DNA of 63,316 nt, filler included, from Collodictyon triciliatum (Eukaryota), in the NCBI GenBank assembly GCA_043381765.1. It is 8 parts of 8 records of this genome, joined end to end, with 100 filler letters (N's around TTAATTAATTAA, not from the genome) between each part and the next. Parts side by side here need not be neighbours in the genome. Positions count along the whole stretch, not along the records: positions 40,140 to 48,215 come from JBHJMP010003601.1; 7 more parts are not named here. One strand, 5' to 3'. Of the stretch, positions 15,496 through 59,062 are shown piece after piece. A model generated the notes under the pieces. The model searched no databases. It saw only the letters and a program-made list of their open reading frames with translations, and was not told the DNA's origin. Position 1 is the first letter of the stretch. Every line of letters starts with the position of its first letter. The translations under genes were made by a program, and so were the position numbers.

Positions 15496-15595
15496 NNNNN
15501 NNNNNNNNNNNNNNNNNNNNNNNNNNNNNNNNNNNNNNNTTAATTAATTAANNNNNNNNNNNNNNNNNNNNNNNNNNNNNNNNNNNNNNNNNNNN
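15496..15595. other. Artificial contig linker N-TTAATTAATTAA-N (the 12-mer also at 23720, 31908, 40084, 48260, 56434, 59007)
   Basis: An identical 12-mer with stops in all six frames sits at the centre of a 100-nt N block seven times. Confidence 0.97.
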
Positions 15596-23675: not shown

Positions 23676-23847
23676 NNNNNNNNNNNNNNNNNNNNNNNNN
23701 NNNNNNNNNNNNNNNNNNNTTAATTAATTAANNNNNNNNNNNNNNNNNNNNNNNNNNNNNNNNNNNNNNNNNNNNTTTTTGTTTTTTTTTTTTTGTTTTT
23801 TTTTTATTATTTTCTCAAACATTTAAAAAAAACATAATATATTACAG

Positions 23848-31652: not shown

Positions 31653-32185
31653 GTATTAAGCCTTCATAATTGATATTTCATTACTCATGTATAATCATGA
31701 TTTCAAACTATTATCGTATGAATTTTAATACAATATTCCGGTATATACTTTTTATTTATTTATTTTTTAGTATTTATTTTTTTAGTATTTATTTTTTTAG
31801 TATTTATTTTTTTAGTATTTATTTTTTTAGTATTTATTTTTTTAGTATTTATTTTTTTAGTATNNNNNNNNNNNNNNNNNNNNNNNNNNNNNNNNNNNNN
31901 NNNNNNNTTAATTAATTAANNNNNNNNNNNNNNNNNNNNNNNNNNNNNNNNNNNNNNNNNNNNCTCTTTTTTTATCTCTCTTTTTTTATCTCTCTTTTTT
32001 TATCTCTCTTTTTTTATCTCTCTTTTTTTATCTCTCTTTTTTTATCTCTCTTTTTTTATCTCTTTTTTATCTCTTTTTTATCTCTTTTTTATCTCTTTTT
32101 TTCCTTCCTTTTCTCCTTCCTTTTCTCTTCCATGCCACTATAACCCATATCCATCGACTGCGATTGCACGACCTTCTGAATGCAG

Positions 32186-37997: not shown

Positions 37998-39850
37998 ACG
38001 CCGTATTGTTTAGGAAAGATCCATACACGATTCTTGGTGTTTCTAGATCCGCCTCCAAAGATGAAATAAAGCAAGCATACTACAAGGTTTTTCTGTCTGT
38101 TTGTTCGTTTTTATCTTGCAAGCATATGAATAATCGTCAGTATTTTTTAAAGACATTTTATTTCACGATATATCTATGGTTTTTTTTTTAAAAAAAAAGA
38201 AACTTAATTTTTCAGCTCGCAAAAAAGTATCACCCAGACTTGAACAAGAATGACTCAGACGCTGCAGAGAAGTTTCGAGAAATAAATGCAGCATATGAAG
38301 TATGCATTTTTGAGGCATCTCCATCTGTTCTTCCTTTTGGTTTTCTTCCCTTTATTTCTCTCCGCTTTTTCCGTTTTCTACTTTATTTAGGGGGTTCAAG
38401 TCATCGAGATTATATATATGTACCTAATGCATACTCTCTTGTTTCTTAGATTCTTAGTGACGACAAAAAGGCATCGTCGTATCAGAACTCGGGGTATTCC
38501 GCCCCTGAATACGATCCATCACGGGCATACCAAGACCCTTTCAGTATATTTGAGGAGTTTATGAGAAACTTTACAGGACAAGGCGATGGCTATTCGGAAC
38601 AAAAGGTAAGCAGTTTGTAACAAATCCCAATAACGTCACTTTGACTATGTGTGGGATGCTACCGCAGAAAGATGCATGTATTTTGAGTGTGAAAACCTAA
38701 ACTTGCAAATAAATATGCAAATCAACATAGGCATATGATATGAATTTGAGCTTTTTGGAGGCTGTGAATGGGTGTGAAAAAGACTTTACATACAACTCAC
38801 TCGCTACATGTGATACTTGCTCTGGGACAAAGAAAGGCCCTAACTCAAGAGTCATCCGATGTACGACATGTGGAGGCTCTGGAGTCGTATGTTTCATTTC
38901 GGATGCATAATATCTATTTTATCTCTTTCAGCTATTATTTTTAAATAGATATATAATTTATAGGTGCAACACAGATTAGGCATCATGGCTATGCAGATGC
39001 CATGTCCAAACTGCCGTGGGTCGGGTTCCTTTATTTCCAATCCGTGTTCCCCATGCAAGGGCAGTGGCTTTGTTGAGAAACAAAGAACAGTTACAGTAAA
39101 CATACCAGCAGGTTTTTTTTTTCCTAACAGTATTACAATTAGTAGTCTCCTTTCGTCTGCACCTCCAAACCTCTGAATATAATAAATAATTTTTATGTTT
39201 GCTTTTTCCCCTTTATTTCTTTGTGATCCAATAGAAAACTAACAGAAAAATTGAATCTTCATGTTAATAGGTGTCAACACCGGTGATGTTATCCACGGAA
39301 AGGCTATGAGGGACTTAGTTCTTCGCATACGAGTAATTCATTTCCTATGGATATTTTTTTTATTCTTATTGTTATTTTTTTATCTTTCCTCTCATCTAAT
39401 TAAATGCTAATTTCTCTTATTGATTCGCTTTTAACTTTATCGAGCCATAAACTGAATGCTCTCCATGAAAGGTTCAACCCCACGAATACTTTAGAAGGGA
39501 AGGCGACGATATTCATGTGAACATTAAATTGAATCTGGCCCAGGCTCTGTTGGGCGGAAAACTTACTGTCCCGACGATTCGCTCTCCTTATGAATTTGAG
39601 GTACGCCTTAACTACTCTATCATGCTAATTCAGCAAGCTCCTATAAACCCTTTTTCTTATCCTTGAATCGCCTCGATAGTTTATCAAATAAGCCTATTCG
39701 TTCACTTATCAATCTAGCATATTCAAATTTTCAGATTCCCAGGGGAGTTCAGCCAAATGACAAGAAAGTTATTCGTAACTTAGGTGTTAAGGACACCCGC
39801 ATCAATCGCTTCGGTGATATGCACATTCATTTTCTCATTGAGCTGCCAAA
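37998..39850 (+). CDS. Type I DnaJ/Hsp40 (DNAJA3/Mdj1-like, probably mitochondrial), partial
   Basis: J domain KDPYTILGV...LAKKYHPD, four CxxCxGxx repeats ([31 protein letters not shown]), and C-terminal FRREGDDIH...QALLGG. Confidence 0.9.
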
Positions 39851-40139
39851 GTATGTTCTTTTTATTCTTCTGCTTTTTCCTGCTTTTTCTTCTGCTTTTT
39901 CTTCTCTTCTTTTTCTTTTTCTTTTTCTTTTTCTTTTTCTTTTTCTTTTTCTTTTTCTTTTTCTTTTTCTTTTTCTTTTTCTTCGTCTTTTTCTTCGACT
40001 TTTTCTTCGTCTTTTTCTTCGTCTTTTTCTTCGTCTTTTNNNNNNNNNNNNNNNNNNNNNNNNNNNNNNNNNNNNNNNNNNNNTTAATTAATTAANNNNN
40101 NNNNNNNNNNNNNNNNNNNNNNNNNNNNNNNNNNNNNNN

Positions 40140-40233
<94 letters not shown>
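40140..40233. repeat. (AAT)n microsatellite at a contig end
   Basis: Seen directly. Confidence 0.95.
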
Positions 40234-40234
<1 letters not shown>

Positions 40235-40290
40235 GTAGGTATCTGGTGATTAGGTCAGCGTTGTATGATGGAAGGGAGAATGAATCTCAC

Positions 40291-43200
40291 GTGTCAGCAT
40301 CACCCGCTTCCATTACTAACTCGCTGAGGGTCTGGGTGAAGTCGTTGGAGTGGAGTTGAACAAATCCACACGCCATGGCTTTGTATGTGTACCTGGCATA
40401 TCACCGCAGGAAAAAAAAAGGGGGCTTCAGGAGAGACAGAAATATATAGACTAATTTCGTAATAATATTCATTTACTCTTGGTAGAGACACGCATCCATA
40501 TCCCATTTTACAGCGAGCAACGAATGAGTCTCGGATATGCATAGATTCTGTTCAGGTATTTACCCTATGGCCGGTGTCGAATGAAGCTCTAGGTCTTGGA
40601 AGGTTCTGGCATTGAAGTATTGTAGAAACTCTTGTCGATATTCTTCATTCTTAACATAGGGAAGGGAGCGGTAAAGTATTTCTTGTTTGAAGGCCGCAAA
40701 CTTAATTTATGGTGTAAAAGTGGTGTTAGTTGTGAATAGATCAAACCCGAAAATGGCATGTCAATGAATCAAGTTTTATTTTCTTTTGATACATTAGTCT
40801 GGACAATTTAACACATAGAAAGAAAAGGGGGTTCAATAATCACCTCATGGGGTTTATACATATCGTACTTTCCTTGAAGTATTAGAGCGATTGCTACTGT
40901 TATAGCCACTGCAGACGCTGTGCATCTTTCATCGAAATGGGTCACCTAATGGAGGAGAGAATATAACTACAGACATTCGTGTAGATTGAATAAAATCCTT
41001 GCTTGTTAATATATTGAGCTTACAGTGGATATTTTTATCGTGTTTTCGACGACTTTATCCAAATTCCAGAAGAAAGGAATCCCGAGAACAGATGTCCTCA
41101 TCACTGATCCGTTTGCTGCCGCCATCGGTTTTCTCTCTTCATTCACTAAATAAGATGCCTGACAAGTGTGTCAGTGTTTTTATAACATAACATAACATAA
41201 CATAACATAACATAACATAACATAACATAACATAACATAACATAACATAACATAACATAACATAACATAACATAACATAACATAACATAGAAAAACGAAG
41301 CGATTATGATAATGAATCCATATAGTCTAATGGTGCCATATTAACACACTAGCAAAGCAAGTATCCGTAATTGAAAAAGACTTCGTATGGATCCTGCAGA
41401 AAACTCTTGTGGTAGACAACAGAACCTAGAGCGATGGTTGCAAATTAGCTACTGAGTGAATAAATATGGAAATATAGCGATACGCAGATTTAATACTTTA
41501 TTTCCCTTACCAACTGTCATCCCTAAACCAAACCCTACATAGTCTCCTATCTCTGGAAATCCTCTTTCGACCCAGTGGCGGAGTCGGTGAGCGAATTGAA
41601 GAGAGTCCACCTAAAAAGCACCAAAATTAAAATATCCATAAGATTAATAAAGGGGAAAAAAAATATCCATAAGATTAAATGAGAGATTAGGATGTACCTT
41701 CCACCTACAAATATAATAATGTATTTTGATATTACCTCCATGTTGTTGTCCAGTAAAGTTTCTAATATCAGTATTGCTTGGTCTATAGATTATGTGAGTA
41801 TTGATGTTTCATGATCCATCGATAAGAAAATGGAAAAGGGATGTAGCTATCAGAGAAATAGGGCATATATAGGCTGGTCCATTCGCACCTGTATCATCCG
41901 TCCAGTCACCTTTTGCCTGTGTGTGAAAAGGGGGCACATAAGAAAGTAGGTGACATTGAAGGGATGATTAGTGATACAAAATATAGTTTAGGCTGGAAAT
42001 ATATTTCTTCATCATTTTCTCATAAACCAATATTTTCATGTGAGGCGAGTAAGAAATAAATCGAGTCTCAGTTTTATGTATACCCAGCGGCTACGATGCC
42101 TGTCTTGAATAATATCAGAGAATTCTATCACACTTTCTTTATAGTGTTGCTGGGCTTGAGTTTTCGTCATAAATTCGGTGGCTTTATGAATAATGCAAAG
42201 AGTGAGTCTATCAAATCGACACGACTATATATTCTACTAATTTGGCTACTTTCTGTAGTTTAAAAAAAAAAAAATGAAAACGTTTCAATGATTTTTGAGA
42301 CCAAATTAAAAATAAGCGAGGAAATAGACGAGTAAAATACTATGACTTTGGCATAGACTCCAGAATAAAGAAATATACATGAAATTCTAATCGTTACTTT
42401 CTGGAAGTGAGTCCAGAAAAATAAGTATAGACTCAAGTTAGAAAAAAAAAATAGAGGAAAGCAAACTTATATACGACCTTACGTGTGTTTTTATATTAAA
42501 AATTATGAGCTTAAACCATATTCAATGCTTAATATTTTTATATTCATGATGGCTCATGATAGAGTTGTTTGCTGTGGTTTACAAAACACTCAAAAAATGT
42601 ATAAATCATACCAAGTCCTATGGCGTCGCCTATAGCATTTCCTATTCACATAATATAGTTTTGTAATTGGTATATGATCAGCAATATTGACCAGAGTTAA
42701 CAACGAAAGTTTCCTTAAGGCAATCAAATAAATCGCCACATTGATTGGTCTCTCTCTCTCTCTCCGTATTTATAATATAAAAATTCTACCAAATATCACT
42801 CCTAATATCTTGTCTCTGAGTTCCTCTTTCGAAAGTCTAGAACAGCTTGTCTCGTAGACACTAGGCATGCCTTGTAAATCTGTATTGAAGGTTGCGATGA
42901 TGTAACTTAGATGCCGCTTTCAAGTAGATTGCAAATTCAAATGATTGCATCAGAAATAAAGGCCAACAACAAGAAAAGAAAAGAAAAAGGCATACCATTC
43001 ACTGTGACAGGAGCGGATTGGTCGAGCATGGAAAGAATAGCCAAGATCTTGGCAGAGTTGTTTGAGCATTCAATAGGGATTTGCTCGAAAATGGGATTGT
43101 CAGCAATCCAAACATCCCGTAGCTTCGGGCAGCGGGACAAACTTGGTGGGAGCTCTTTGAGTAAGTTCTTTGAGACGGAGACTGATATGAGATTTCTCAA

Positions 43201-43632
43201 ATTGCAGATGGTGTCTGGGATTTTTAGGATCCGGTTATTATTGAGACTGATCTCGCAGAGGCTGGGGAAGTAAACAAAAAGCTCTGGGGGCAACGTCACC
43301 AACAGATTGCGATCGAGATTGAGACGTATAACTCTGTGAAATCGATCCGGGACAAGATAGCGCCTGGGAAAGAGCGTGATGCCCTTTTTGATGACAAAGA
43401 GACTCGGGTGGGCGCAAGCAGCATCTTCCACTGATTATTTATACCAGAATAAGTTTCTATTAGCATAGAGGGAGGAAAGGCTGGGTGGGGTTAGGTTGCA
43501 ACAGAAAGCTGTTAGCAGGAGGTTATAGGGAAGCAAGCTTATGCCCTTTGTATATACTGGATCATTATCGTATTGATCGGGAGTGTGTCCGTCGTCGTGG
43601 AGAGGATTCATTTGATAAGTTGTTGGTTCTGC
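40291..43632 (-). CDS. Leucine-rich repeat plus ADP-ribosylglycohydrolase (ARH/DraG family) fusion protein, 3' end truncated
   Basis: The LRR exon 43430-42995 (LNLDRNLLVTLP, ISLNNNRILKIP, VSVSKNLLKELP, VWIADNP) splices in frame to RDKILGVIFGNAIGDAIGLATEF, KGDWTDDTDQ, AANGSVMRT, VTHFDERC, IGYTYKA and EAGDADT. Confidence 0.85.
41183..41289. repeat. (ACATA)n intronic microsatellite
   Basis: Seen directly. Confidence 0.95.
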
Positions 43633-44885
43633 ACGGAAAAATAAGAGAGCAAAGATATATGAAGGTTGAAGAGACAAGCAACAAACCGCCCTGCTCTGGA
43701 TAAAACATGGGCAAGTCACTCCCTTCCATCGACTTTCTTGGCCGTTTTGTGGAGTGGCAGGCGTGTCAATTTGGTTTAGTTATGTTGCCTTGAAAAAAAA
43801 AAATAATGATTGCGGCATCGGGTGGCTGATTGAAGTCAAGTGTTTTGTTTTTTGTTAAAAAAAGGAAAGAAAAGAAAAGAAAAGAAAAGAAAAGAAAAGA
43901 AAAGAAAAGAAAAGAAAAGGAAAGGAAAGGAAAGAAAAGAAAAGAGAAGAAAAGAAAAGAAAAGAAAAGAAAATAAAATAAAATAAAATAAAGGGCATAA
44001 CGAGGTGGCCTCGTTGGCGTGAATGAAGAGCAGCACTCTCCGATGTCGTGCGGTGACAAGAAAACGCAATAAGACAAAAGAAAGTCCGGTGGATGTTTAT
44101 TATCTATATGTGGGAAATATGATGTAAACCTATTTCCCACATCATGAGTGTACAAAATACTGCAATGCAGTCTGAAAGAAGTGAGTGTTTTAACCACACG
44201 AAGAAGTCATCATTCTATTCGAACGCGCTTGATAGAGGGAGAGAACCAGACTTCTTCAACCCACTATAATCCCAAATGGAAACTGCAGCGTAATCAAGTC
44301 AGCATATTCTCAATCCGCCATGTAGTTTCGTCACTCGCTGACGCAGTAAGCAAAAGCGGATACCTACTAATTGATGGCCGCAAAGGGGCGGGCGCGTATT
44401 CGCCTTCAAATTGCAAGCACACGTCAAAAAACAAAACGCAAAAGCAATAAGAAACAAGAAGCAACAACAACAAGAAGCAACAACAACAAGAAGCAACAAC
44501 AACAAGAAGCAACAACAACAAGAAGCAACAACAACAAGAAACAACAACAACAACAACAAAAAAAAAAAAAACATAAGGAACTATAAGAAACCATAAGAAA
44601 CCATGAGAAACCACAAGAAACCATAAGAAACAAAAAGAAACAAAATAAAACAGACAGATATAGGAGGAAACAGAAGAAACCTTTGAAGTCAAGAGATCGA
44701 GATATATGTGTGTGTGTGGTTGTGAATGACATGGCACTCGGGCACCGCAGCACGGGCGAAGCACTTGAGCCCGGAGCTGCTTCTCTGGCGACTAACTGCA
44801 TCAGACACATAGGATGGGTGCACCCAGGAACGTCGCAAAACAAGCGCACCCAAGCAACTCATCCCTGCGCTGGCTACCCAGCTGG

Positions 44886-45898
44886 ATGGCTCACTTTTTT
44901 CAAAAGTGTTTCTTGATTTGCAAGGCCTTTGTGGACTTCTTCTTCCAACCTGGTGGCAAGTCAAAGGGTCCCTTTCTCTATTTTCATTCTTTCCTTTCCT
45001 TTCCTCTCGTTTTGTTTTGTTTTGTTCTGTTTTGTTCTGTTTTGTTCTGTTCTGTTCTGTTCTGTTTTGTTTTGTTTTGTTTTGTTTTGTTTTGGTTTGG
45101 TTTGGTTCGATTTGTTTTGATTTGTTTGCTCGCCTACATTCTTTTCTTTTCTATTTTTTTTCTCGTGCACATGAGTGTGGCTATTCACCATATAAACCCA
45201 CCAGAATAAATCCGTGGAAAAAAAGGAGGAAACTTTTTCCACAGAGATGTACTGATTTTATTAAACAGTCGTGAAGGAAGTGCCTCCGCACTGGGCCCCG
45301 CTTATTGAGCACAAAGATTTGGTTACCAAGGACGGTGTGCAGATTCGATACCACTACATGGATCAAAGACTGCCAGAACACAAGCAGCAACATAAGGTGC
45401 GTTTCATCCCTGACCAGAATCCACTACCAACCCAATGAATGCTTTACTCGCTCTCTGCTCTTAATCCTTATTTTTGACTTCCACTAACACCATTTGCTTT
45501 TGGCATCATTATTTTGCTTTGTTGTTCTCTCTTCTCACCATACCTCCTTATGTTATTGGGATTGTATGATTTGTATTGGGTTCATACCTTCCTCCCCATG
45601 TGTGTTCAAATATGGGATGTAGTATTGAATGAGGCGTTAACATGATACGGGTGGCGATTCTATAGGTGCTTGTGCTGGCTTTGGGCCTGGGCAGCCGTAT
45701 GCGCCACTTCGACGTGATTGTACCGCATCTGAGCAAGGAGTACATCATTGTCACATGGGACTATCGTGGGCAGTTTGGTTCGGTGAATCCTCTCATGCAT
45801 TTTGACGAGATTCCTCTAGAGACACATGCGCGAGACTTTGATGCCATAATGACGAAGGAAGGATGGGACGAAGCATACATCATCGCGTGGAGCATGGT

Positions 45899-45937
<39 letters not shown>

Positions 45938-47125
45938 GTTGTTAGATTTATCGACCCAGCTGAAAGCAAGCTAGTGATGACTCATCAATATTTACCTTAG
46001 GGAGTCCAAGTAACTCTTAAGATTGNNNNNNNNNNNNNNNNNNNNNNNNNNNNNNNNNNNNNNNNNNNNNNNNNNNNNNNNNNNNNNNNNNNNNNNNNNN
46101 NNNNNNNNNNNNNNNNNNNNNNNNNNNNNNNNNNNNNNNNNNNNNNNNNNNNNNNNNNNNNNNNNNNNNNNNNNNNNNNNNNNNNNNNNNNNNNNNNNNN
46201 NNNNNNNNNNNNNNNNNNNNNNNNNNNNNNNNNNNNNNNNNNNNNNNNNNNNNNNNNNNNNNNNNNNNNNNNNNNNNNNNNNNNNNNNNNNNNNNNNNNN
46301 NNNNNNNNNNNNNNNNNNNNNNNNNNNNNNNNNNNNNNNNNNNNNNNNNNNNNNNNNNNNNNNNNNNNAAAAAAAAGACAGAAAAAAGACAAAAAAAGAT
46401 AGAAAAACCTTGTCAATTTTATAACTCTTATATTAAGTATATGTCAGCGTTGATTTTTTATATGTACATGTGTGAGCTAATATTACCACACAGTTTTGAA
46501 TATTTATTATAAAAATCGTTCTATTGCCGTTAGGTTTTTATTATTATTGCTAATATTTTTTAAAAAAACAATAATAATCATAGGTATCTCTTAGACTTGA
46601 TACAAAGTCGCGAACATTTCCAAAACTATGTAAAACTGTCGCTAGCACTTAACGAAAAGCCATTCTTGGATCAAATCTCGAAAGAATTAAAAGAGGACCC
46701 GCTCAAGACGATGGTTGTGAGTGGATGGCTGGACTTCTTTGTGAGTACCTCGCTCTTATTTTTTTTTCACGCATAAATCCGGAAAGATAATTCGTTGACT
46801 CCAGCAGTCTCATTTATTTTCGCTAATTATGAAGAAAGCAATAGAGAAACCAAACGTTCGTAGCAAACTCATGTTAATCCTTGGCTTTTCCGTGCCCTTC
46901 TAATCAAAGTACATAATTTCGGTTCTATACGGAATCTAGACTCCACATAGACTGTCAGTCCGTATCAAGAATCACTTCCCAAATGCCCCGCACGTCGCTT
47001 ATCGCCTTGGGTCTCACTTTATCCTCATGGAGTGGCCGCATGAGTTACTGGAGGACATAGTATTTTTTTTGGATGGTAATCCTCACTTGCTTCAAGAAAG
47101 ATGGCACAAGACTGTCACTTATTAA
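44886..47125 (+). CDS. Alpha/beta-fold hydrolase (interrupted by an assembly gap)
   Basis: TKDGVQIRY, LALGLG, WDYRGQFGS, nucleophile elbow AWSM|G, acid motif SGWLDFF|TP, His motif GSHFILMEWP, and stop at 47123-47125. The start codon is tentative. Confidence 0.82.
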
Positions 47126-48315
47126 GATACATGTTGCTCGGTCAAATTGATCCAAGGGTTTATTTCATGCATAAGTATGCAGTCGTTGCGCCCTCTCCTT
47201 CTCCCTCCCGCTCCAGACTCAAAAGATGCACTCAAAATGAATAAAATGGCGTAACCACCTCAAAGCATAATTGGCTAATTTCACATTTGGCAGAGTGATG
47301 CGCTTTGGTTATCTCACTTTCTGACAGCTGCTTGCCAGAACACATTACTCGAAATCATTAAGCGTTTGCTGGGGTGGGTTGTATTGTGTTTATAAAGGAG
47401 CGCTCATTATCATTACTTATCATCCATTCAGTGCTTGTTATCCAATCCCCATGTTTATGAGAGGATTTACATATGTCTATTAATCCATACATTTCTTACC
47501 TTTTTAGATGTCGCATGTATTCAGTTTTACAAAAGCCCTTTAATCTTGCGTCTATTGCCAATTATATTGTTGCATGCTCCTAATCTACTTGGCTCGCTGT
47601 AAGATAATTTTTTTTTCCCTGTATTTTATGGGACTTTGCGTGCAGGTATCACTTTTGAGCGTCTAGTCGCTAACTGCGAAAGGGAGGAACTAATCTCCAA
47701 CGTTTTGCTTGTTTGGCTCCATGTTTATTGTTTGATGAGCGGTTTATCCAAAATATATAAAAACGAACTTGATTCAACACATGACAGTCCTATGGTAAAA
47801 AAAAATAATCAAAAGATGAAATACTTCACAACATCATATCATTCGATGTAGGGTTTCACAAATGTCAAAGCAGCTTTGACAATTTGTGCCTTTTGGCAGA
47901 GAAAAATGAAAAAAGCTTCGAAAATTGGAGGTTTGCGCGCGATGATTCTAGTCCCTTTTTTCTCTCGTCTTAGTGACTTAAAGCGAATATATTTGTCAAC
48001 TCAACACAGACACGAATTTCAGAGATAGGGACATCTAGACGATTGCAGACTCACATACAATAGAAGAAAAAAAAGGAAAGGGAATAGTGAATCCGTATGC
48101 TCGGGAGCTGATAACCACGACTGTGTTTGATGTACTCAACCAGAACTAATAAAATCCTTAAAAGGAACAATACTTGTCACATAAAAGCAGTGCCATGCCG
48201 TGGTCTTGCTGAAACNNNNNNNNNNNNNNNNNNNNNNNNNNNNNNNNNNNNNNNNNNNNTTAATTAATTAANNNNNNNNNNNNNNNNNNNNNNNNNNNNN
48301 NNNNNNNNNNNNNNN

Positions 48316-56041: not shown

Positions 56042-56489
56042 TGAATAATTGTTTTCCACATTCATGTTAACGGACATGGGTACGGTATGATTGCTTTCTT
56101 TGTCGGACTTATTGCTATATATCTAAGCAATTTCATGCTTACTATATATATATATATTTGCTTGTTATATGACACTCTGTCCCATATAACAAAATTCTTG
56201 AGGGTGTGCACGGTATTTTCCACAAATATTGAACCCATTCCGTTCATTCACACTTAATCTGATTGGCCGATCTCTTTTTCACGAAAAAAACACATAAAAA
56301 ACACATAAAAAACACATAAAAAACACATAAAAAACACATAAAAAACACATAAAAAACACATAAAAAACACACATAAAAAACACACATAANNNNNNNNNNN
56401 NNNNNNNNNNNNNNNNNNNNNNNNNNNNNNNNNTTAATTAATTAANNNNNNNNNNNNNNNNNNNNNNNNNNNNNNNNNNNNNNNNNNNN

Positions 56490-57301: not shown

Positions 57302-58786
57302 TCAGCTTCTCTTGGAAAAACTTATTATCATCTCACGTAGAGTATCCACCTTTGCATCTGGTATTGAAAACTTTGGTGTAGTGTTTTCTTGAATGGCTCT
57401 TGAATTACCCTGTATTGCACATACAGCGATTTTGATTTCTTCACTCGATACAGAATATTTTGATCGAATACCTGGTTGGTGAAGACCAGATATCCCTGCC
57501 CCTGTTAAACCGAGCGATTTGACCAAACGATACAGCGAAAACAGGGCATTCCCCTTTTTGTTTAGGTATTCGCGTAGTTCGAATGGACTCAGCTCTTTCA
57601 CTAAGCGTGATGATCTTGGATTCTGGGGTGATGAATCAGTAGACTCTTGAGAGATTTCAACAAATTTCAAGGCTTGTTCCAGCGCGATATGATATCTTTT
57701 TGTAAGTCCGTCTTCGGTTAAAACATCAGGAATATCTTCCACCCTTTCCCAGTCTTCCCCTCCCATCTTGTCGCTGAGTGACCTACATCCATTCAAAAAT
57801 AAAAATTCCACAAACTCCCCTCGGTACATATCTTCTACAGGGGTCATATTCTCAACAGGTAATAATTCGTTCATAACATCTTCACAAAGGCAGAATTCAT
57901 GACCTTGAAACTCACGCAGATAATTTGAAACAAGAGGCAAAGAGGGTCGCAGTTTGTAATTTTGTCTCCAGCAGCACCTGATTAAGCATTCCATCTCTGG
58001 AGGTACATTTGTCGGCATTTTGGGTCTTAGACCGCCAATCACAAATCGCTGTGGTTCTCTCTCAGCAAGGTAAGGCTCGACCCCCGAAAACATGTACCAA
58101 ACAAGAAGAGCAAATGCGTACACATTACTGGGTTCTCCTCGATGACCTATGTTCACTCCGTCGTCTCCATATTCACATTCATCATCGTAATAAGGTTTGG
58201 AGACAACTTCGTGTATTTCTGGTGCTTGCCAATTAAGGGTTCCATATCTTTTCAACTCACCAAACCTAGTAGGAAGGTGTGAGCCTATTTTTTCATTTTC
58301 TCTTCGACTAACTATTCCGAAATCAACAATTCTAACTGTGTTGTCGACGACCATGATATTCTCGTGCTTCAAATCTTCATGGAACATATCCTTTGAGTGC
58401 ATAAATATAAGTCCACAACAAATCTGCTCAGAAAATTGAACAATTTGTACGGTTGAGGGTCTTTTATCTCTTTTAGATTCCATGAGCTTTTTGAGAGAAA
58501 TACCAGCGTTCTCCATTACCATGTAAAAGTCATTTTCCAGTCTGTGCACACTCATTAATTCTACGATATATTTGCACTCGCGGCATTCTTTCAAAAGCAA
58601 ACTTTCTGTAATCATGGAGTTTATTACTTTGTTCATCGAATTTCCAATTTGGACGGTTTGAACCTTTATCACGGCATTTTTTCCAGATATTTTATCTCTT
58701 GTTTGGTACACTCTACCAAAGGCACCTCTTCCCAAAAAATTTCCAAGAGTAATTTTCTCCTTCGTCCAAGAATCCTTCAATTTCAT
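57302..58786 (-). CDS. Intronless TKL-like non-RD protein kinase with two C-terminal SAM-like repeats
   Basis: Single 494-aa ORF: LGRGAFGRV, AVIK, HEDLKHENI, DFG, GTLNWQAPE and CWRQNYKLRPS. The SAM-like pattern is judged by eye. TATAAAAA lies about 35-40 bp upstream of the ATG. Confidence 0.88.
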   Translation of the reverse strand: MKLKDSWTKEKITLGNFLGRGAFGRVYQTRDKISGKNAVIKVQTVQIGNSMNKVINSMITESLLLKECRECKYIVELMSVHRLENDFYMVMENAGISLKKLMESKRDKRPSTVQIVQFSEQICCGLIFMHSKDMFHEDLKHENIMVVDNTVRIVDFGIVSRRENEKIGSHLPTRFGELKRYGTLNWQAPEIHEVVSKPYYDDECEYGDDGVNIGHRGEPSNVYAFALLVWYMFSGVEPYLAEREPQRFVIGGLRPKMPTNVPPEMECLIRCCWRQNYKLRPSLPLVSNYLREFQGHEFCLCEDVMNELLPVENMTPVEDMYRGEFVEFLFLNGCRSLSDKMGGEDWERVEDIPDVLTEDGLTKRYHIALEQALKFVEISQESTDSSPQNPRSSRLVKELSPFELREYLNKKGNALFSLYRLVKSLGLTGAGISGLHQPGIRSKYSVSSEEIKIAVCAIQGNSRAIQENTTPKFSIPDAKVDTLREMIISFSKRS

Positions 58787-59062
58787 ATCTATGTCTCGAA
58801 GAGCTGCGGCTAAGAATAGTTTTTATAGAATTTTTTAAATGAAGAATTAAGCGGATGGAACATAATCTAAATTGATTTATTGATGTATGAAAATGGCTTC
58901 TTTTTTTTTTTTTTTTTTTTTTTGGTTATTTTTGGTTTTTTTGTATTTTATTTATTTCTTTTNNNNNNNNNNNNNNNNNNNNNNNNNNNNNNNNNNNNNN
59001 NNNNNNTTAATTAATTAANNNNNNNNNNNNNNNNNNNNNNNNNNNNNNNNNNNNNNNNNNNN

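Follow-up and report, generated by a model that had tools for sequence, protein, structure and literature searches.

The LRR and ARH exons that follow one another at this locus of Collodictyon triciliatum raise two questions: whether they belong to one gene, and what an ADP-ribosylglycohydrolase (ARH) domain joined to an LRR block would do. The locus lies on scaffold JBHJMP010003601.1 of assembly GCA_043381765.1 and was analysed within a stretch of 63,316 nucleotides, here called the window.

The LRR and ARH parts are one gene

The LRR and ARH parts are one real gene, which encodes a two-module protein. The gene runs along the minus strand from 43790 to 40291 in 13 exons, with 12 canonical GT-AG introns and a frame that stays open throughout at least 463 coding amino acids (Table 1). 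As the preliminary description had read it, the LRR exon continues in frame through GT-AG introns into ARH exons on one contig; 11 further exons follow it, and no N's occur between 40291 and 43790.

Intron-less contigs of a public run (X1) were compared with the region 41300-43860, and all eight introns tested there were found to be removed, each reading CT..AC on the plus strand. One X1 contig runs from the LRR exon straight into the ARH exons, its joint (42996|42879) falling on the very splice site predicted, with 91 letters on the shorter side, and carries on through six more splice sites. X1 contigs skip 42880-42995 exactly, at the LRR-to-ARH junction where spanning reads had been proposed as a check. 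A ninth junction (41382|41158) has the support of loose ends both of X1 and of X2, a run coded as another organism; introns 41023-40946, 40843-40701 and 40563-40393, which lie beyond an (ATAAC)n repeat at 41182-41289, are predicted from the in-frame GT-AG model. A third run, X3, gave no match in the region compared. The label 'RNA' for these runs is a guess, no run is on record as RNA, and an intron-less DNA copy is formally possible. X1 differs from the assembly at four exonic positions, of which two are synonymous and two give V271I and T33S.

That the fusion is only apparent, from two distinct genes or from a chimeric assembly, is by now very improbable, and this account is already largely refuted. 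It could draw on the scaffold, which is small (8,076 bp) and unplaced and has gaps, and on the guessed run type; against this, an independent data set supplied the contig in which the junction is spanned and the intron exactly taken out, with at least 91 letters on either side and six more splice sites, and the frame is kept across 12 introns. An ARH-only product may also be made, starting at Met165 just after the LRR-ARH junction.

The exon boundaries differ in places from those first drawn. The introns placed at 42994-42866 and 42790-42643 fall within a few bases of 42995-42880 and 42789-42642, one acceptor excepted. The 5' limit, with a start ATG near 43611, proved to lie inside intron 1 (43431-43686); from the sequence and the ORF reading, the true start ATG is at 43729-43727 and a TGA in the same frame lies at 43768-43766, and the acceptor AG of exon 1, at 43790-43789, follows a T-run. 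The ORF read earlier at 43435-43611 gave no Pfam match and ends in a TAA (43437-43435). Neither a 14-nt 'intron' nor a stop-codon reassignment across this TAA is needed, since the transcript skips the region.

Table 1 Features of the LRR-ARH gene and of its 3' surroundings
Feature	Position	Strand	Content	Evidence
Exon 1	43687..43790	-	5' UTR, codons 1-14 (MEGSDLPMFYPEQG) and one further base	X1 contig covers 43790-43687, joins 43430
Intron 1	43431..43686	-	256 nt, GT..AG	Contig joint 43430->43687 skips 256, CT..AC on + strand
Exon 2	42996..43430	-	Single 435-nt exon, whole LRR block, aa 15-160	Pfam LRR_8
Intron 2	42880..42995	-	116 nt, phase 1, LRR-to-ARH junction	Joint 42879->42996 in X1, CT..AC
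Exon 3	42790..42879	-	Linker and ARH domain start (…EELRDKILGVIF)	GT-AG model, X1 contigs; local ARH HMM from node 4
Intron 3	42642..42789	-		X1 contig joint 42640/42789
Exon 4	42612..42641	-	GNAIGDAIGL, first family motif, G190/G194/D195/G198	Model, contig joints 42640/42789 and 42181/42612
Exon 5	42084..42181	-	ATEFMTK…; Glu202, aligned to the conserved Glu that follows GDAxG in the family	Model, contigs, HMM alignment
Exon 6	41889..41916	-	AKGDWTDDT; T238 D239 D240 T241	Model, contigs, conserved columns
Exon 7	41736..41782	-	DQAILILETLLDNNME	Model, contigs
Exon 8	41511..41610	-	Holds G287	Model, contigs, conserved columns
Exon 9	41382..41425	-	Weak donor GTCTTT	Model; X1 and X2 both have loose ends at 41381 that run into the next exon's start
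Exon 10	41024..41158	-	…AAANGSVMRTSVLG…; N321 G322 M325 R326	Pfam PF03747 positions 118-152, ESM Atlas
Exon 11	40844..40945	-	VTHFDERC…; T352 H353 A362	Pfam PF03747 positions 153-180
Exon 12	40564..40700	-	Variable region of ARH domain	In-frame GT-AG model; alone, no family match
Exon 13, last visible	40291..40392	-	…MEAGDAD and AC, split Thr codon	Pfam PF03747 231-266 of 287
Unfinished intron start	40140..40290	-	(ATT)n microsatellite 40140-40233 running into scaffold end	3' exon(s) absent
Artificial scaffold joiner	40040..40139	.	44 N + TTAATTAATTAA + 44 N	

At its 3' end the gene is incomplete. The ARH domain had been called intact, a description that goes beyond what the assembly shows: the scaffold stops 151 bp past exon 13, which carries GDADT and ends at a donor GTGAGA starting at 40290, and the Pfam match reaches 266 of 287 positions. 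By comparison with the consensus of bacterial ARH seeds, the missing C-terminus would be roughly 40-60 aa, including about the last 21 of the 287 Pfam positions and a tail. A complete, active ARH domain can only be presumed, because the 3' end is absent from the assembly. No further ARH fragment or second copy was found anywhere in the 63-kb window. The window strings together separate scaffolds of ~8.08 kb by means of seven joiners of the kind listed in Table 1, against 0.03 expected by chance, so a DnaJ gene below 40040, on the other side of a joiner, was rejected as a neighbour. No Rfam family was found across the whole window.

The two modules of the protein

The 463 aa are fully assigned, to the LRR block (15-160), a linker of ~25 aa and the ARH domain (about 179 onward). 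No NB-ARC/NACHT, TIR, death or signal/TM element was found in them. The N-terminus is not hydrophobic, and the highest Kyte-Doolittle 19-mer (1.63) lies within the ARH core; a cytosolic location is predicted.

Exon 2 matched LRR_8 with an E-value of 1.8e-12 (47.2 bits, cut-off 27), and also scored above the Pfam cut-offs for LRR_4 (30.6 bits against 27) and LRR_1 (24.9 against 20.6); no other Pfam family was found on it. LxxLxLxxNxL units begin at aa 48, 72, 95 and 118, spaced 23-24 aa apart, with one degenerate unit ahead of them and a C-terminal cap (IADNPIFEQIP...) after them, which agrees with the earlier count of about 4-5 repeats. In the PDB the block matched SHOC2 best, over its final repeats and cap (E 1.3e-32), and the nearest ESM Atlas clusters were SOC-2, LRRC20, RSU1, LRRC40 and LRRC57. 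In a representative protein library the exon matched 35,845 proteins at E<=0.001; those returned, ordered by the sum of their repeats, were all giant multi-repeat LRR proteins (885-7,992 aa) and of no use for tracing orthologs. AlphaFold2, run on the LRR exon as a single sequence without an alignment, gave a mean pLDDT of 29.8, too low for the model to bear on a curved solenoid fold. In its repeats the LRR block resembles the cytoplasmic adaptor type, SHOC2/RSU1-like.

For the second module, three single exons matched PF03747 in collinear order, at positions 118-152 (E 6e-4), 153-180 (E 0.004) and 231-266 of 287 (E 0.096), each under the 26.2-bit cut-off. In a separate single-exon Pfam test two of seven exons matched PF03747 and the other five had no match, and 28 of the 30 ESM Atlas matches of exon 10 were PF03747 clusters. 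A local HMM was built from 47 prokaryotic ARH ORFs. They were chosen among 113 ORFs that bear the motif, collected at 120 prokaryotic loci; the other 66 were left out for a length <240 or >480 aa or for having no [ST]DD[TS]. All 12 seeds tested were verified as PF03747 (E 1e-31 to 1e-67), and four long motif-bearing ORFs were dismissed by the Pfam check as chance motif matches with no ARH. Against this HMM the spliced domain scored 109.9 bits (E 1.6e-33), the best of 200 shuffles reaching 7.0 bits. By sequence, the domain is a member of the ADP-ribosylglycohydrolase family (PF03747).

The metal-binding motifs named in the preliminary description are all present in the exons that follow the LRR exon: GDAIG (aa 194-198), WTDDT (237-241), NGSVMR (321-326) and GDAD+T (460-464). 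Sixteen columns are near-invariant in the seeds (>=85%, outside the selecting motif), and the model is identical at all 16 (G190, G194, D195, G198, T238, D239, D240, T241, G287, N321, G322, M325, R326, T352, H353 and A362). D195, E202, D239, D240, D461, D463 and T464 (ACN codon) align with invariant seed columns, and all 47 seeds have the two Asps of TDDT; the GGDTDT with which the seeds end their motif series is AGDADT here. In characterised ARHs the metal centre is binuclear and includes a bridging Asp and a Glu flap (PMC7050489). Catalytic roles were taken from section 22 of that source, for residues aligned to the bacterial seeds. On this alignment the residues of the two-metal catalytic centre are kept, as far as the assembly reaches. 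The domain shares 19-34% identity with the seeds, and PDB searches with single ARH exons returned chance matches at most and no solved ARH; for these two reasons the assignment stops at the family, above the level of subclass (ARH1-, ARH3- or DraG-like) and substrate.

Candidate function and its rivals

The product is probably a cytosolic two-module protein whose LRR docks a specific partner and whose ARH domain is a targeted ADP-ribose eraser. The N-terminal SHOC2/RSU1-type LRR block would bind a specific partner protein or complex, and this presumed docking would set the metal-dependent hydrolase beside its substrate. There the ARH domain, presumably active and acting on a protein rather than on a small molecule, would cleave an alpha-ADP-ribosyl linkage. 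The logic would be that of other short-LRR proteins with a hydrolase, and of SHOC2 guiding the phosphatase PP1.

In the CCR4/CNOT6 deadenylase a short N-terminal LRR, which docks the enzyme to CAF1, precedes a C-terminal Mg-dependent EEP hydrolase, and PHLPP and the yeast adenylate cyclase Cyr1 also combine an LRR with a catalytic domain. The design of a few LRRs ahead of a metal-dependent hydrolase is the same as here, whereas the catalytic folds and substrates are unrelated. SHOC2 acts in its complex as an LRR scaffold that brings an 'eraser' enzyme to the substrate. The likeness to the SHOC2-MRAS-PP1C holophosphatase (PDB 7upi, 7tvf, 7sd0 and others) lies in the last SHOC2 repeats and cap; with about 20 repeats, SHOC2 holds its enzyme by non-covalent contacts, whereas the enzyme here is fused to 4-5 repeats and would remove a different mark. 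A SHOC2 ortholog was rejected: only 4-5 repeats are present, a 14-aa N-terminus stands in place of the N-terminal MRAS/PP1-binding region, and the likeness is in repeat type only.

Among ARHs, the domain belongs to the same PF03747 family as ARH3 (ADPRS), ARH1 (ADPRH) and DraG and keeps GDAxG…E, TDDT, NGxxMR, TH and GDxDT. Those characterised enzymes are the catalytic domain alone, whereas an N-terminal LRR block is present here and the C-terminus is unseen. Long bacterial ARH proteins are modular too. Most of the 120 listed, of 532 matches at 738-2105 aa, carry further Pfam families; phosphatase-like, NUDIX and VWA domains were seen fused to ARH, and one protein (L011) is ARH plus VWA. These are prokaryotic, with no LRR family among the 120 listed, which is weak evidence as the range would miss an LRR-ARH protein of ~520 aa. 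The statement that ARHs are stand-alone stands for the characterised enzymes, for which section 22 and other passages of PMC7050489 mention no accessory domain, and fails for the family, given these fusions.

Searches for longer homologous proteins gave 435 candidates with the LRR exon, none at E<=0.001, and five with the NGSVMR exon, none confirmed. None of 544 pattern matches in metagenome loci was confirmed either, and limited database searches returned no LRR+ARH ortholog. Full-text searches of the literature brought up no LRR+ARH protein; the papers that matched (e.g. PMC3482391, PMC1314882, PMC3417536) name the two terms separately. The architecture may already be present, unremarked, in domain databases.

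Two other catalytic roles were weighed against the partner-docked eraser. The ARH domain could have a free metabolite with a ribosyl or ADP-ribosyl group as its substrate (for instance O-acetyl-ADP-ribose, a signal derived from ADP-ribose, or some other riboside), the LRR only localising or regulating it. This is unlikely but deserves some weight: the 19-34% identity to the seeds means that a substrate class is not transferable, and ARH3 also hydrolyses O-acetyl-ADP-ribose and PAR (PMC7050489). LRRs of the SHOC2/RSU1 kind, however, are protein-protein adaptors, which a protein-bound substrate or complex fits better, and a lone eukaryotic gene on a scaffold of 8 kb offers no metabolic gene context. 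A smaller chance is given to an immune-type role, in which the LRR would bind a bacterial ADP-ribosyltransferase effector or a modified host target and the ARH domain would strip off the toxin's mark. ARH-family proteins do act as antidotes to bacterial ART toxins, as Imm-ARG does (PMC3482391), and LRRs are common receptors in eukaryotic immunity (PMC3417536). The Imm-ARG/Tri1-type proteins are likewise ARH-fold enzymes that undo a toxin's ADP-ribosylation (PMC3482391), but they are bacterial, lack an LRR and adjoin the toxin gene, a context not seen at the LRR-ARH gene. Against an immune role stand the lack of any NB-ARC/NACHT, TIR, death or signal/TM element, the presence of just 4-5 repeats of cytoplasmic adaptor type, and the fact that no lineage-specific expansion was seen, with no second copy in the 63-kb window and no close database relatives. 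An NLR/STAND immune receptor was rejected outright, there being no central NTPase and no room for another domain; the order of effector, NB-ARC/NACHT and LRR in those receptors is reversed here, with the LRR N-terminal. A partner-docked eraser is preferred to a pathogen sensor because the LRR is of the cytoplasmic adaptor type and NB-ARC and NACHT are absent, and the sensor-linked eraser in defence put forward in the preliminary description found no support, with TIR and signal peptide lacking as well.

ARH2 and crystallin J1 are ARH folds that bind ADP-ribose or are structural, without catalysis, and a pseudoenzyme or scaffold of that sort is thought slightly less probable here than the immune role. 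Its case rests on the unseen C-terminal part, on the last motif, which departs from the seeds at two positions, and on the existence of inactive ARHs, since of three vertebrate ARHs only ARH1 and ARH3 are confirmed hydrolases (PMC7050489). Against it, the two deviating positions are not the acidic ligands, and all 16 near-invariant columns are kept along with the TDDT Asps, the GDxDT Asps and Thr, and the Glu after GDAxG.

Meaning for ADP-ribose erasers

Three things limit the value of the finding for now: part of the gene is missing from the assembly, the searches yielded no orthologs, and the architecture possibly stands unremarked in databases. Little is understood of the way in which ARH erasers reach their substrates, since the proteins studied (ARH1, ARH3 and DraG) are bare catalytic domains. 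A natural fusion of an adaptor-type LRR with a seemingly competent ARH domain gives a way into this question. If the immune role were true, a single protein would serve as a cell-autonomous antidote, with a function like that of bacterial Imm-ARG/Tri1 and a eukaryotic receptor domain in its build. The weaker form, if true, would make this the first natural ARH whose choice of substrate is set by a fused adaptor domain. The binding partner of the LRR should indicate the ADP-ribosylated substrate or pathway in this organism, and if docking holds, a dedicated docking module would be able to target ADP-ribose removal, in the way that SHOC2 targets PP1.

Gene structure and transcript-like evidence

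The LRR-ARH gene model was built from minus-strand in-frame ORF pieces and GT/AG sites and then extended with transcript-like contigs, giving 13 exons in which 12 of 12 introns (78–430 nt) are GT..AG. The open frame comprises 463 codons and a split codon beginning AC, which encodes Thr regardless of the next base. Its start codon is ATG 43729-43727, and upstream of it exon 1 also contains an in-frame TGA (43768-43766). A start ATG had been proposed near 43611 in the preliminary description; this ATG and its ORF, which has no Pfam match, belong to intron 1. No special explanation is required for the in-frame TAA at 43437-43435. Exon 13 ends at a good donor (GTGAGA); the intron then runs for 57 nt before an (ATT)31 array takes over and reaches the scaffold end, and 3' exon(s) are therefore absent from the assembly. 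No further piece and no second copy were found in the whole window by a six-frame ARH-profile scan and tblastn with the model.

Contigs from three small public sequencing runs of one study (X1–X3, of which X2 is coded as another organism) were compared with 41300-43860 only, a limit set by a repeat at 41182-41289; the runs' 'RNA?' label is a guess, none being on record as RNA. X1 yielded two contigs on this region. All eight model introns inside it, each CT..AC on the plus strand, were skipped exactly in X1 (256, 116, 148, 430, 167, 106, 125 and 85 nt). The LRR-to-ARH junction corresponds to the 116-nt skip, whose shorter flank spans 91 letters, supporting a fusion of LRR and ARH in one gene. 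The preliminary description had placed the two junction introns correctly to within a few bases, except for one acceptor, which lies at 42880 and not 42866. A ninth junction (41382/41158) is supported, despite a weak GTCTTT donor, by loose ends at 41381 that continue into the start of exon 10 and are 9 letters long in X1 and 190 letters (30 shown) in X2. Because introns are missing at precise splice sites, the X1 contigs are most simply derived from mRNA; a processed DNA copy, the only alternative, is unlikely. Four exonic positions of X1 depart from the assembly; two of these changes are synonymous and the others are V271I and T33S. On the 5' side of the AG acceptor at 43790-43789, which lies behind a T-run, the 341-nt contig has 22 extra letters, and it begins exactly with them. 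These letters do not occur in the window even at 3 mismatches (43791-46025 is gap-free); they may come from a remote 5' exon or represent a trans-spliced leader of ~22–24 nt.

The window consists of several scaffolds, not a single chromosome piece, with seven identical joiners (chance expectation for such 12-mers 0.03). Scaffold size is ~8.08 kb, five consecutive pieces measuring 8,074–8,088 bp, as if unplaced scaffolds had been ordered by length; most of the piece ends listed fall within simple repeats, microsatellites included. Gene order across a joiner carries no meaning, and the DnaJ exon is not a neighbour of the LRR-ARH gene because it lies on another scaffold, below 40040. Around the gene the DNA is eukaryotic in style, with ~34–37% G+C, many microsatellites and short spliced exons. 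Upstream, in the opposite orientation, ORF pieces resemble exons of another gene; three pieces of this region gave no Pfam match at E<=0.01. A different scaffold carries an uninterrupted 506-aa ORF in which a protein kinase domain (Pkinase, E 1.1e-33) precedes ~200 aa that match no Pfam family.

Table. Coordinates of features in the window
Feature	Position	Strand	Remark
Exon 1	43790-43687	-	
Exon 2	43430-42996	-	aa 15-160, LRR
Exon 3	42879-42790	-	
Exon 4	42641-42612	-	
Exon 5	42181-42084	-	
Exon 6	41916-41889	-	
Exon 7	41782-41736	-	
Exon 8	41610-41511	-	
Exon 9	41425-41382	-	
Exon 10	41158-41024	-	NGSVMR exon
Exon 11	40945-40844	-	
Exon 12	40700-40564	-	
Exon 13	40392-40291	-	last visible
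X1 contig, 670 nt	43218-42996, 42879-42789, 42181-42083, 41782-41734, 41608-41509, 41423-41381		also joins through tiny exons 42640-42612 and 41915-41889
X1 contig, 341 nt	43790-43687 joined to 43430-43216		
Scaffold piece with LRR-ARH gene	40140-48215		8,076 bp; internal gap 46026-46368
Exon-like ORF region	45666-47125	+	e.g. 45666-45890, 46940-47125; interrupted by 343-N gap
DnaJ C-terminal exon	39469-39666		separate scaffold
Kinase ORF	57302-58822	-	506 aa
Joiners	15496-15595, 23676-23775, 31864-31963, 40040-40139, 48216-48315, 56390-56489, 58963-59062		44 N, TTAATTAATTAA, 44 N

The LRR and ARH modules

Exon 2 matched LRR_8 (E 1.8e-12, 47.2 bits, cut-off 27), with LRR_4 and LRR_1 likewise above cut-off. 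Canonical units begin at aa 48, 72, 95 and 118, preceded by one degenerate unit and followed by a cap-like segment, IADNPIFEQIP. In the Protein Data Bank the LRR exon matched SHOC2 best, over its final repeats and cap (E 1.3e-32), with LRRD1 and plant receptor kinases next; the closest ESM Atlas clusters were SOC-2-like, LRRC20, RSU1, LRRC40 and LRRC57 (scores 0.96–0.97). These clusters represent small LRR adaptors of the cytoplasm and not LRR proteins of extracellular or NLR type. The N-terminus (MEGSDLPMFYPEQG…) lacks hydrophobic character, and the 463-aa model has nothing membrane-like outside its ARH core.

Single ARH exons are too short for curated Pfam thresholds. Three matched PF03747 collinearly, at 118-152 (E 6e-4), 153-180 (E 0.004) and 231-266 (E 0.096) of 287; a second run on single exons found it in two of seven and not in the other five. 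In the ESM Atlas, 28 of 30 matches of the NGSVMR exon were PF03747 clusters (top score 0.95). A local ARH set was assembled by scanning prokaryotic genomes with a degenerate motif (120 loci; 113 ORFs with the motif), from which 47 ORFs of suitable length also bearing [ST]DD[TS] served as seeds. All 12 seeds submitted to Pfam were PF03747 (E 1e-31 to 1e-67). Among seven long motif-bearing ORFs, four were chance matches, none of them seeds. Against the seed HMM the spliced protein reached 109.9 bits (E 1.6e-33; best of 200 shuffles 7.0 bits), with aa 179-377 aligned and an envelope to 461. The alignment paired GNAIGDAIGLATE with GlavGDalGmptE, WTDDTDQA with iTDDTeqa, NGSVMR with nGaaMR and STVTH with sepTH.

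The four ARH motifs quoted in the preliminary description were all present. Its 'intact' domain was borne out for the conserved residues as far as the assembly reaches, 16 of 16 MAFFT columns at least 85% conserved among the seeds (selecting motif excluded) being identical in the model; the 3' end of the gene is missing from the assembly. At the selecting motif the model has A-G-D-A-D-(T) where seeds have G-G-D-T-D-T, both Asp and the Thr being retained. According to a review (PMC7050489), characterised ARHs all rely on two metal ions at the active centre, bridged by an Asp, and on a flap that carries the catalytic Glu. The model residues appear to fit such a centre and flap. Identity to the bacterial seeds is only 19–34%, and a single-exon search of solved structures found no solved ARH.

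Candidate function and occurrence of the combination

The protein consists of the LRR first, a ~25-aa linker and the ARH domain, with no space for an NTPase, TIR or death domain. The LRR-ARH protein shares this design with enzymes such as CCR4/CNOT6, PHLPP and yeast adenylate cyclase, whose few LRRs attach the catalytic domain to a partner. The design is also functionally close to that of SHOC2, which presents PP1 to its substrate. On this layout and these analogies we favour an ADP-ribosyl hydrolase whose catalytic domain the LRR block would dock onto a partner, a reading that, taken whole, is reasonably probable; the gene and fusion alone are very probable. A hydrolase of small ribosyl metabolites, with the LRR as regulator, is rather unlikely. 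The defence sensor-eraser proposed in the preliminary description is unsupported speculation and doubtful: LRRs come first, the domains named are lacking, and the nearest LRR relatives are cytoplasmic adaptors. A catalytically silent scaffold is slightly less probable again, the conserved ARH columns being retained, and an artefact is very improbable. The gene itself is real and expressed, a fusion of two familiar modules whose 3' end the assembly lacks.

Neither the LRR exon nor the best ARH exon retrieved a relative in word-indexed searches of 5.8 billion proteins; close orthologs are therefore not in that collection. An ARH profile search among proteins of 738–2105 aa, a range outside which the ~520-aa LRR-ARH protein falls, returned 532 ARH proteins. 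Most of the 120 listed (P0151–P0270) contained additional domains, phosphatase-like families and in one case NUDIX, and none had an LRR family; they include a large set of ~830–970-aa prokaryotic proteins with phosphatase-like Pfam families. Among prokaryotic loci, L011 is an ARH+VWA fusion and L080 a fusion with DUF6508, with L034 named alongside; fusion of ARH to further modules is common in prokaryotes. Full-text searches of the literature found no description of an LRR+ARH protein. An LRR partner was thus not seen in the databases and literature searched, which does not prove absence. Across natural proteins ARH clearly behaves as a module, and the present gene joins known modules in a combination that would be new among the material searched.
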